Source: Octopus vulgaris (Eukaryota). From it: DNA of 64,000 bases. The stretch lies in the NCBI GenBank assembly GCA_951406725.2, contig OX597814.1, positions 23,808,001-23,872,000 of the forward strand, in the 5' to 3' direction. Positions within the stretch are counted from its first letter, which is position 1. Each line of letters opens with the position of its first letter. The notes beneath the pieces were generated by a model. That model did not search any database and had not been told where the DNA came from. It was given only the letters and a program-made list of their open reading frames with translations. This document shows positions 1 to 39,500 of the stretch, one piece after another. Made by a program: the position numbers and the translations under genes.

Positions 1-213
1 TGAATACCCAAATAACTAAACGAATTTATTAGTGATAGCAAGGTGAAAGAGAAATGGAAAATATACGTAGGGATTCTAGATTGTAATAGGACACTGCATC
101 ATGGAAGGCACTCTGATTTGGGAAATGAAATGTTATGAAAAACTTTTTATACTTATTTAAGCCCTGTCCACATGATCAGGCAGTATCCAATAGATACATG
201 TTAAATGCCTGCT

Positions 214-35953: not shown

Positions 35954-37914
35954 GATGGTAGGGAGCAATTTGAGAGAGATTTAGTCTCTATTCTGAGCAG
36001 ACTGTGGTCTTTTACTTGTGCAACTCATTATAGCAAAGAAGTGGACATATGTAACTCTAGAAGACAACTGAGCATTCTTAATTGGCAGCCTGTATTGAGC
36101 TGCTTTTATGAATGGAGCAAGAATCCAACCAAATGATAAGGGACATGACGAATTTAAAACTAAGGTACAGGTTTAGAAGAAGTGAGATAATGGGGTAAGC
36201 AAGGAATCTTATTAAGAAACTAGATGACAAAAATGACATCAAGAGTATCTAGAGGTGGTGGGGGAGGAACTCAGCGTGAGGTGTTTACATCACAAGGATG
36301 AAAAGTACAATGTGTTTTGAATAACAGAAATAACAATATCTGTACAAATTTTGATGTCATAATGGTAATGAGAGGAGAAGTCTGTTTGAAATATTAATGC
36401 TAATGTTTTCAGACATACTGAAAAGAAAATAGTATGGAAATGCTGCAAAGAAAGATTATTAGTTGAATAGAGAGTTTTAAAAATTACTTTTATTTTTGGA
36501 TGGAGCATTATTTTCTTCTTTTCTTATGAAAGCTATCAAATATAGTAGTTCATGACAAGATCTGAACTTAGCAAATACTGCAAACTATCTGATCTGATGT
36601 TCTTTTAGTTTGTCAATCCATAGGCTGGATTGATGATTTATTTTTTTATTAACCCCAAAAAGATAGCAAGAAAATTTGAGTTCAATAATAAATAAAGGAC
36701 CAAGGATATCTGACTGGTGAAATATTCAGTTTAAAAGTCAATTAGCTGTTATTCACTTATGTAAAAGCAATAAGAACTGAGGTAAACAAAGATGTAGATA
36801 AGATGTACTAGTTTTGACATTGTAAGCTAGTAATAAACAGTGATATGTGCAGCCATGTAAAACTCATCTAAATCATAACTATTTAAAAAAAAATAATAAA
36901 AATCTTATCATATACTTCCATATATACTCAATATATAGCATTCTAAATCAAAATATAAAGAATATTGCTATTTGATTCAAATAAAAACTAAAAATCACCT
37001 CTGAGATTTAGATAAGTACAATTTAGCAAAATTTGAAATGTGTAAATTAATGAAATCAGAAAGGTTCCTATTCAACGTTTGCTTTCAATTAAATTATATA
37101 ATCTCATACATTTAATTTGATTAAATCTATGAGATAAAAAAAAGAAGATAAAAAAAGGAAATGAAATTCAAATGAATGCCTTCTTTGAGAAAAATAAAAT
37201 AAAATAAAGTTTCAATTTGAGATTTATGGATTTACATCATTTCCAGTAAATGAGAAATACTTGAAACTGAAGTTAAAATGACTGAAAACCTAACTTCTAC
37301 CTAATGAAATGGCAGAATTCTGAAATTATAACCATAACTCATTTCATTTATTGAAATGATGCAATGAGTTTCATAATAAAATCTTTCTCATATATTTTCA
37401 TAAAAATTTCACTAAGCAGCTGAGGTTGTTTGTTATCAAATTTTAATTTATAAAGAAGAGCCAATAACTGGTAGGTTCAGTCTATTCATATCTAAAGAAT
37501 TCTATAACTTTCTAATCAAATCACTCAAAGCCATATTATTGTAACAGTATAACAGTTCTATAGATATAAATATATATATGGAATCTTTAAAACTCCTTCT
37601 GAACTTAGCTTATTTATCGATCTAAATTTTTTTGCTAAATATTCAGCATTTGTTTGTGCACAGCCTATGTCTCATTTAATATCTCTCTCTCCCTCTCACT
37701 CATATAGTCATACTTCATCGCGTCAGTAGTTTCTATCTCTTCATTTAGGAATCTGCCTGTCTGTCTCTCTTTCTCTTTCTCTCTCCCTCTCATATATGTA
37801 TATATATGTGTGTCTGTGTGTGCATATATATATATATATGTACATAAATATATACATATATATATACATATACATACACATGCATCTATATTACTTTTAC
37901 TTTTATATATATAT

Positions 37915-38165
37915 GCCCGTGGGCATATGACGTAGTGGTTAAGAGAATGGGCTACTATTCCCAAGATTCCAAGTTCGATTCCAGGCAGTGACCTGAATAA
38001 TTAACGATAATAATAATAACATCGAAAAATGCTATAGGAATGAGAACCCAGGTTTGAAATTTCTCCAAGACACCTGATGAAGGCTGGAAAGTATATCAGC
38101 TGAAACGTTGTGTTAACAACAAACAAGATGAGGACAAATATCCGTGAAATGTAAATAATGTACAT
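37915..38165 (+). mobile_element. tRNA-headed element carrying a hammerhead ribozyme, flanked by (TA)n
   Basis: A box TGACGTAGTGG at 37928, B box GTTCGATTCC at 37973, hammerhead at 38070-38113. Confidence 0.75.
38070..38113 (+). ncRNA. Minimal type I hammerhead ribozyme
   Basis: acac-CTGATGA-a-ggctgg-aaagtata-tcagct-GAAA-cg-TT-gtgt. Palindromic ACGT stem III, GUU triplet. Confidence 0.85.
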
Positions 38166-38192
38166 ATATATATATATATGTAAATATATATA

Positions 38193-38235
<43 letters not shown>

Positions 38236-38469
38236 CCTCCCATCACACAACTACACCCACGCATATACAAGCATATGCATATCTATATAAATGAAGGGAA
38301 TGTGTACATGAAAGTTGCACATATGCACCAGATACTGTCTTACACTCATATACACGCACACACATATACATTTAAAATATATACATACATATACATATGC
38401 ACACACACGTACACATTCACACAATTAAAAAGGAAAAAGGAAAAGATATATATGTATAAAATAGATTAA

Positions 38470-39500
38470 ATTTAAAAATTAATGGAAGTTAAAACATATA
38501 GGAAAGCTTGTGCAGGAACATAGTAAAAATGTGAATTCTAGCTGTGATTTTGGGAGACCCAAAACCGTAATGGGTATTTTGCAACGTGTGGATATGATGC
38601 AAAAAGGTCAGTTCTTGAATTTAGACATGTAGTGGGGTTCAAGGAACTTTTCCAGATAAGTCATCTTTCCATATTACAAAGATCACACTTACCACTACTG
38701 TTGGTATAAGGTTTACACTTGGCTAAGATCTTCCAGTAAATCCTGAAGTTGACACCTTGTTCTTTTAAGAACCATATATAACTGGATAATTTGGTAGTTT
38801 TTCATTTATTCTATTGTCTGAAGCTTAAGGTGTGATTGTTGAATCTTGCTTTGAAATTTCCCTCTCTGAGACCCACATATCTCTTGGATGAAACTGTATT
38901 ACTAGCGTTCATAGAATTTACAGTGGCTTCATAAATAATGGCCTTAAGTCATACAAGCTCATTTTAGTGAGCACAAGTCAGCTTCATGTTGTTGTGTTGC
39001 ATTGTATGTAATTATGCTTTTAAAGTTTGGGGTGGAACAAAAACTAATTTTTACATTAAGCCTATTAAAGAGTTTTGTATATTTGTGATGTATTGGAAAA
39101 TGTCTATCTATAAGTGACAAGAAATATTTACCTATATTAAATGTCACTTTGGGGGAGTAAGAGGGTGTAAACCAGATAATATTCCTGTGTCTATGTTTTC
39201 TTTATTTCTGATCTAATAGTAGGGGTGTAAGCTATTTCCTCTTTAAATCCACTAGCTTTAAGAGCATTGTTATATAATGGGGTAGCATTATTAAATATGT
39301 TTATATTGGAGGAGAGGCTAGAAATTCTCCTACTTATATTCTTAACTAAATTGTTAACCACTATGTGGATGGTAACAGGAACCTACCTTAGTATAACTAA
39401 GTCTATCATTGGGCTTTCTATATGGTTTGTAAATATTCTTTTGTAAATATATACGTCAAGGAAATTGACAACTGTCAGGTTGGTATCTTTTGTTATGCTA
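38470..39500 (-). mobile_element. Penelope-like element remnant (RT C-terminus, linker, GIY-YIG endonuclease)
   Basis: Minus strand: VNFLDV..YKPYRKPND; ISRRISSLSSN..F..ATPLYNNALKASG; RNIIWFTPSYS; NIGKYFLSLIDRHFP..FNRLNVKISF; AIIYEATV..RYVGLREGNFKARFNNH; LSSYIWFLKE; CDLC. Contains stops. Confidence 0.9.

Follow-up and report, generated by a model that had tools for sequence, protein, structure and literature searches.

The Poseidon element PAc of Anolis carolinensis is described (PMC11167929) as having the order pLTR-ORF-pLTR and encoding an RT with a C-terminal GIY-YIG domain; its ORF start overlaps a hammerhead that cleaves only with protein and is dispensable for insertion. According to the same account its RT starts internally at two sites about 110-150 nt into the ORF on an uncleaved RNA template, the gap between these sites corresponds to the 30-40-nt tail that distinguishes its two 3' ends, and copies have inverted 5'-truncated partners. 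The octopus element considered here is alike in the order of its parts, its encoded domains, the hammerhead overlapped by the ORF start, the two 3' ends set apart by a tail, the inverted 5'-truncated partners and the uncleaved template, and differs from PAc, as far as that description extends (PMC11167929), in that it alone has a tRNA-derived A/B-box head at the start of its pLTR, with most head-reaching copies starting there. The Schistosoma repeats Sm-alpha and Sj-alpha, as reported in PMC6765202, are likewise short and place a hammerhead behind a Pol III-type promoter, but Sm-alpha forms tandem repeats in which the hammerhead cuts monomers from multimers, whereas the octopus unit is dispersed or head-to-head, bears a minimal PLE-type hammerhead and is part of a coding element. 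The TRIMp3 elements Cassandra, Helenus and Ajax are similar in holding a small-RNA-derived Pol III promoter within the terminal repeat; as presented in PMC10886601 these are non-autonomous LTR elements, whereas the octopus head sits in an autonomous protein-coding PLE, and the argument is made there that any autonomous partner has to rely on Pol II and is not expected to have the repeat in common with them. Non-LTR retrozymes are also short hammerhead repeats related to PLE pLTRs, and are defined in the relevant accounts (PMC7229834; bioRxiv 10.64898/2026.07.22.740005) by a head-to-tail tandem arrangement and by hammerheads of type I, with no tRNA promoter described in those accounts. The octopus unit, by contrast, is mostly solo or inverted.

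The octopus SINE families OK, OR1 and OR2 were reportedly described by Ohshima and Okada in 1994. Like other tRNA-derived SINEs (SINE2), they share with the unit a tRNA head, A and B boxes, a length of about 250-280 bp and a high copy number, whereas the unit is without LINE-derived tail, poly(A) or regular TSD and bears PLE integration marks. In part of the literature OR1 and OR2 are cited as CORE-SINEs (PMC4758252, PMC4824008). Our search of the open literature found no description of a PLE with a tRNA-derived pLTR; Repbase, Dfam, SINEBase, the supplement libraries or the 1994 paper of Ohshima and Okada may already name the sequence as SINE/Penelope.

The unit and its features

The window is a stretch of 64,000 nucleotides of Octopus vulgaris DNA, within which a repeat of 250 bp combines a tRNA-derived head with a minimal hammerhead motif. 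The original prediction put it forward as a candidate SINE with a Pol III promoter and a ribozyme, mobilised by PLE machinery, and all the features that it named were found at the positions it gave. The unit and its surroundings are laid out as follows.

37911..37928, no strand: perfect 8-bp palindrome with a 2-nt loop, at the 5' junction
37915, plus strand: unit position 1 (G), the putative RNA start, 13 nt 5' of the A box, placed by the 5'-end pile-up
37921..37995, plus strand: tRNA-derived head; A and B boxes present, acceptor stem lost
37928-37938, plus strand: A box, TGACGTAGTGG
37973-37981, plus strand: B box, GTTCGATTC
37996..38020 (approximate), plus strand: (AAT)n linker; length varies, often interrupted in other copies
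38040..38165, plus strand: Poseidon ORF start; ATG at 38040, MRTQV..., in frame with the RT in long copies
38069..38114, plus strand: minimal type I hammerhead, lying within the beginning of the coding sequence
38069-38073/38110-38114, plus strand: hammerhead helix I
38074-38080, plus strand: hammerhead core CUGAUGA, followed by a single unpaired A at 38081
38082-38086/38097-38101, plus strand: hammerhead helix II
38102 onwards, plus strand: hammerhead GAAA, with the ACGU palindrome at 38105-38108
After U38109, plus strand: predicted hammerhead cleavage site
38150..38166, plus strand: 3' end of the short kind, at the first of the RT start sites (about unit 255); the optional tail of about 35 nt is absent in the window copy
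38164..38230, no strand: (TA)n tract, outside the unit; the Hydra-type PLE next to it has this tract in common at its 3' end
38235..39300, minus strand: decayed Hydra-type PLE, a bystander; RT end, linker, GIY-YIG-type EN and 3' UTR

The A and B boxes lie at the tRNA-like spacing that had been claimed for them, 45 nt apart, and such a pair arises in none of 2000 shuffles of the unit; the AAT-rich linker is likewise present. Rfam gave no tRNA or hammerhead match (the window at the gathering threshold, eight loci at E<=1), and ARAGORN detected no tRNA. For the bare hammerhead core pattern the window has 3 matches, which is no excess over chance (1.7 expected); folding of the single strand shows nothing unusual (z -1.0 and -1.9), and MFE folds did not yield the active form. 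The predicted hammerhead is nevertheless taken as real because of the family, where the core is intact in 41 of 88 copies, and because it is placed in the pLTR of a PLE. It has the PLE-type unpaired base before stem II and a palindromic helix III, features of the minimal type I hammerheads in PLE pLTRs as characterised in PMC4209133; the G10.1-C11.1 pair is G-U in the window copy.

The palindrome at the 5' junction is likely a short fold-back (inverted) arm, as typical for PLE insertions. Its loop is AC, AT or AA in all 10 parsed ORF-linked copies and GT in the window copy; GT was also considered as a general fold-back marker and dropped, as a frequency of 2/20 parsed solo copies versus 0/10 ORF-linked ones comes from too few copies and is suggestive at most.

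The neighbouring Penelope-like element

The PLE remnant that had been noticed some 300 bp away is real, its ORF ending at about 38571 on the minus strand and its 3' UTR extending to the (TA)n at about 38235, but it is not the partner of the unit, being Hydra-type and having an unrelated 3' UTR. In the 3' UTRs of 29 related loci the unit goes unmatched, with matches limited to AAT repeats and one separate unit fragment. A young sister family of the remnant has RWK, DKT and CxCx5C, motifs that are typical of the Hydra clade, a clade for which a preference for (TA)n is noted in PMC8557442. The (TA)n on both sides, which had been noticed in the original prediction, is present at the window copy but is not a family trait: only 4 of 98 copies have it near their 3' end, against 5.8% of random windows, and (TA)n targeting by the unit was rejected on that count.

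This sister family (loci L101-L104 and L288-L317) is very young, with intact 717-codon ORFs and a 31-mer that has 2,321 exact matches, and it is likely to have been recently active; apparent full tandems occur, with matches about 2.58 kb apart, and its hammerhead core is a variant, CCGAWGA. In the head-less Hydra-type family, 5' ends pile up 52-75 nt upstream of the 31-mer (11/27, at L288-L317), a candidate pLTR transcription start that may be readable from the genome.

An autonomous Poseidon element contains the whole unit

The unit is the pseudo-LTR plus the ORF start, that is the first 130-160 or so coding bases, of an autonomous Penelope/Poseidon element, head included. The full element consists of one unit, a 2.3-kb body that codes for RT plus, C-terminally, a GIY-YIG-type EN, and a second unit. 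Three of the first 30 loci share an upstream sequence that translates to a PLE ORF end; among 30 loci found by the EN protein, the unit or part of it lies just downstream in 29 (L121 and L129 are duplicates, L109 is without a head, the head is displaced in L137, and L117 has no unit); and among 30 found by the ORF N-terminus, a direct unit fragment lies just upstream in 22, as read from the match table. Locus L214 is a near full-length copy. The ORF opens at the ATG inside the unit, passes through the hammerhead and is open into the body, the optional tail carrying its frame onward; in the window copy this ORF start is interrupted by stop codons. The column-majority body is a single 783-codon frame with the motifs GLNF, DKG, YVDD and CCHH, and further VYSIPCSC..YKGET, EEH and ADH, without a linker Zn finger. 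The RT matches PF00078 (E 3e-8); Pfam gave no match to an EN family, and the EN is called by motif, against the descriptions in PMC8557442. It is by the motif criteria given there, rather than by tree, that the element is assigned to Penelope/Poseidon (PMC8557442). A protein search found no longer proteins with the N-terminal 207 aa at E<=0.001, which is weak evidence, and no second, head-less Poseidon family was found among the fetched loci.

The original prediction had asked whether head and ribozyme co-occur in many copies and whether the 3' part matches a PLE pseudo-LTR. The two are joined in thousands of dispersed copies and not at one locus, and the match to a pseudo-LTR takes in the whole unit with its head. 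A free-standing SINE with no more than its tail in common with a PLE has thus to be given up, since the autonomous element holds the whole unit, which is a pLTR with an ORF start and not a sequence with a borrowed tail. Of the traits of SINE2 elements, the tRNA-related head with A and B boxes is present, whereas sharing of the 3' tail alone with a partner is not found.

Several derivatives and relatives were encountered alongside these copies. Five loci (L264, L266, L271, L276 and L284) are internally deleted, with the pLTR and the first 390-455 nt or so of the body followed by the 3' part of the unit, possibly a non-autonomous subfamily. A 9-nt duplication at unit 240-260 (L259, L273, L277), close to the first 3' end, varies in number and keeps the frame. 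Stop-free RT fragments of another PLE family, with about 30% identity, occur at L240:1295-2317 on the minus strand and L127:2676-3290 on the plus strand; from their motifs these are presumably Neptune-like.

Insertion marks and the making of copies

Two samples of copies were classified, the first drawn from the 100 matches at the top of the 27-mer listing, of which 98 were classified, and the second comprising 60 further copies from a second pattern, some of which are partners of copies in the first. Two 3' ends occur, at about unit 255 and about unit 284, some 30 nt apart. Among resolved head-to-head inverted pairs, 32 of 38 in sample 1 (10 unresolved) and 22 of 24 in sample 2 (7 unresolved) have the tail of about 35 nt on one end and not on the other. 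Of 48 inverted partners in sample 1, 22 have their start at 0-24 and 2 extend into the ORF. As had been predicted, neither a LINE-type tail nor a regular TSD is present: no regular TSD was found in 12 non-inverted solo copies, six of which had no 5-mer match and the rest short or low-complexity ones, and in place of a LINE-type tail there is a PLE tail. The claim that PLE machinery made the insertions is borne out by the head-to-head inversions, the one-end tail and the lack of regular TSDs; the marks of Penelope/Poseidon insertion, which are pLTRs from partial tandems, an inverted 5'-truncated partner and a one-end tail of 30-40 nt, are all there, and LINE-type integration with TSD and A-rich or repeat tail is not. 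No direct head-to-tail tandems were flagged among the 98 copies, whose partners are inverted, so the head-to-tail hammerhead tandems of non-LTR retrozymes are not found. The element is a member of Penelope/Poseidon that works like a SINE, yet has neither the independence nor the LINE-type integration of one.

Full copies span the cleavage site, which means that their templates were uncleaved. The 5' ends at 195-205, near that site, number 3/98 and 4/58, a weak excess, and at least two of the four are junction artefacts. The hammerhead is the ordinary one of a PLE, and its predicted cleavage was not needed for the making of these copies.

Where the RNA begins

Copies that reach the head tend to end there. 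In sample 1, 32 of 44 head-reaching copies have their 5' ends at -8..15 (38/50 once seven linker-interrupted copies, in which the upstream ORF is unchecked, are reassigned), as do 17 of 21 in the partly overlapping sample 2, while 12 and 3 copies, respectively, continue into the ORF and one other ends at -10. The 5'-end density is about 0.06/nt at the head and 0.002-0.006 in other non-linker bins; linker ends, which 20 of 98 and 18 of 60 copies have, are not fully assignable. Upstream pLTRs of long copies read past position 1 in four cases out of five (P=0.013 vs 38/50), and for this reason position 1 is no hard RT stop; because, moreover, head-starting copies lack a fold-back at the head in 21 of 32 cases, a hairpin stop is an unlikely cause of the pile-up. 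On the simplest reading, position 1 is where the RNA begins; it lies 13 nt 5' of the A box, at the place expected of a Pol III start, and the head is likely to be the element's own promoter.

The pile-up was also entertained as proof of Pol III, and that use of it was weakened by a head-less control PLE whose 5' ends also pile up, just before its hammerhead, in 11 copies of 27 at risk. The effect in the head-bearing family is stronger (P=0.003), and since the control piles up as well, a pile-up marks the RNA start of a pLTR and does not name the polymerase. The occurrence of pile-ups in two unrelated families suggests that a genome sequence by itself can reveal where transcription of a pLTR starts.

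RNA-seq was consulted in runs X21 and X23 of organism B, of each of which about 6% was scanned. Unit reads numbered 10,478 in X21 and 7,031 in X23, with strands equal and 61-64% extending into other sequence, and in the scanned portions of both runs there was no pile-up of starts or ends. This coverage looks like read-through in host transcripts, which is silent on Pol III and on cleavage.

Polymerase and origin of the short copies

The explanation that we favour, with slightly better than even confidence, is that the head of the Poseidon pLTR is a likely Pol III promoter and that RT priming in the ORF and run-off at the 5' end give rise to the SINE-like copies. The tRNA-derived A/B-box head would start transcription at unit position 1, likely by Pol III; the element's own RT would then probably prime just inside the ORF on uncleaved RNA; and by running off the 5' end of that RNA it would leave short tRNA-headed copies such as the one in the window. 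Thousands of SINE-like short copies are thus likely to come from the PLE itself, with no separate SINE.

Pol III is the likely polymerase, judging from the position and state of the boxes. The same element and the same RNA start could also be served by a Pol II promoter, with a TATA-like element that the copy upstream provides through the end of its ORF, an initiator at position 1, and the tRNA head a captured SINE relic, and this arrangement we consider unlikely. Of 30 ORF-linked loci, 27 have a TATAA at -28 relative to position 1, a placement compatible with Pol II and Pol III alike; the head-less control piles up without any head; the characterised Penelope promoters, in the pLTRs of D. virilis and A. 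vaga, are Pol II-type in the accounts of PMC2377424 and PMC3846280; a capped mRNA would be more easily translated; and the head is equally near to a resident tRNA-SINE head and to the best tRNA gene (a score of 58 against each). Against a Pol II promoter are the offset of the start from the A box, which is that expected of Pol III, the survival of both boxes intact in the majority sequence despite its decayed stems, and a pile-up that exceeds that of the control. The 2.6-kb majority element also contains no T4 run, compared with 29 in the control PLE; this lack has P=0.007 under a base shuffle, 0.045 under a synonymous shuffle of the body, and 0.08 and 0.22 under first- and second-order Markov models, and is fragile, since it does not hold up under the higher-order nulls. 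T4 runs are scarce also in the two Neptune-like fragments, with 2 in 1023 nt and 0 in 615 nt.

It is improbable that the solo units form a SINE in their own right, whose solo masters are transcribed by Pol III with the Poseidon RT acting in trans. Solo copies outnumber ORF-linked ones by about 3-4 to 1 among those that reach the head, the unit is without a T4 terminator, and long templates pass position 1 where most others stop, all of which would fit such a SINE; but the whole unit lies inside an autonomous element, making a separate origin unnecessary, solo copies are without the upstream TATA-like element, and no solo-specific variants are apparent on inspection of the alignments. The minimal template of the Anolis Poseidon, moreover, is reported to need 172 nt of ORF (PMC11167929), as against about 160 nt in a tailed solo copy. 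That the short copies are ordinary 5'-truncated PLE copies, made as RT stalls or folds back at a GCCC-NN-GGGC palindrome in a head that is no promoter, is very improbable, for although in 11 of 32 head-starting copies there is an inverted partner that likewise starts at the head and the window copy has a palindromic junction, the remaining 21 are without such a fold-back, the parental stem has merely 4-5 bp, and the palindrome is read through not only in most upstream pLTRs but also in 12 of 44 sampled copies.

A bolder proposal, to which we give a rather low probability, is that an autonomous coding element is transcribed end to end by Pol III from a captured tRNA promoter. Transcription would start at the 5' pLTR and meet no T4 terminator over 2.6 kb, and the uncapped RNA would be translated; hammerhead processing and circularisation might come first, and would bring ATG and ORF together again over the cleavage site. 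The same RNA start would also yield the SINE-like copies, so that SINE and partner would be united in one element.

Source of the head

Compared with the tRNA genes of the genome, the head gives several scores above all of 200 shuffles, the best being Arg-TCG; the comparison set comprised 30 tRNA loci of the genome, an incomplete set of isotypes within which Arg, Ala, Thr and Cys score alike. In the majority sequence the A and B boxes match the consensus and the cloverleaf is decayed. Two abundant tRNA-SINE families with heads resembling that of the unit were seen, with 7 and 4 copies in 464 kb made up of random loci (L061-L100) and the window, and these resident families are possible donors of the head. 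A tRNA or tRNA-SINE head may have been captured behind the stop codon, in the 3' UTR of a PLE, and would from there have become part of every pLTR, as its start.

Abundance and state of the family

One 27-mer of the unit has 7,018 exact matches in the genome and one 28-mer has 5,620, and a lower bound of about 14,000 segments follows from how far the two patterns overlap; five loci in 400 kb of arbitrary sequence correspond to about 35,000 segments (11,000-82,000) in the 2.8-Gb genome, which comprises about 30 large contigs. The best 40 of 3,845 candidates, the window's own copy aside, are near full-length at 88-91% identity. Across 78 copies the divergence from the column majority is 5.3%, an underestimate since the copies were picked by exact match, and among 150 + 150 protein matches the longest open frame has 465 codons, against 783 in the majority. 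With copies about 5% diverged and no more than 465 of 783 codons open in any match, the Poseidon family looks dead or inactive. The unit sequence also occurs in sequencing runs from organisms B, D and E.

In some copies the AAT linker exceeds 800 nt, and it is often broken by other repeats with shared ends (for example in L194, L132, L185, L225 and L228); these shared-end interruptions suggest elements that target (AAT)n.

Implications

The octopus element shows a way in which SINE-like repeats can arise in the absence of any separate SINE: with a tRNA promoter in the pLTR of a PLE and internal priming of the Poseidon kind, every transcript could give a short, tRNA-headed, hammerhead-bearing copy. 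Repeat annotation is likely to split such a family into 'SINE' and 'Penelope'. The arrangement provides a model, open to testing, of how repeats of the Sm-alpha type originated, as well as a PLE counterpart to Cassandra and Helenus. If Pol III does make the coding RNA, this would contradict the published view by which an autonomous element depends on Pol II.
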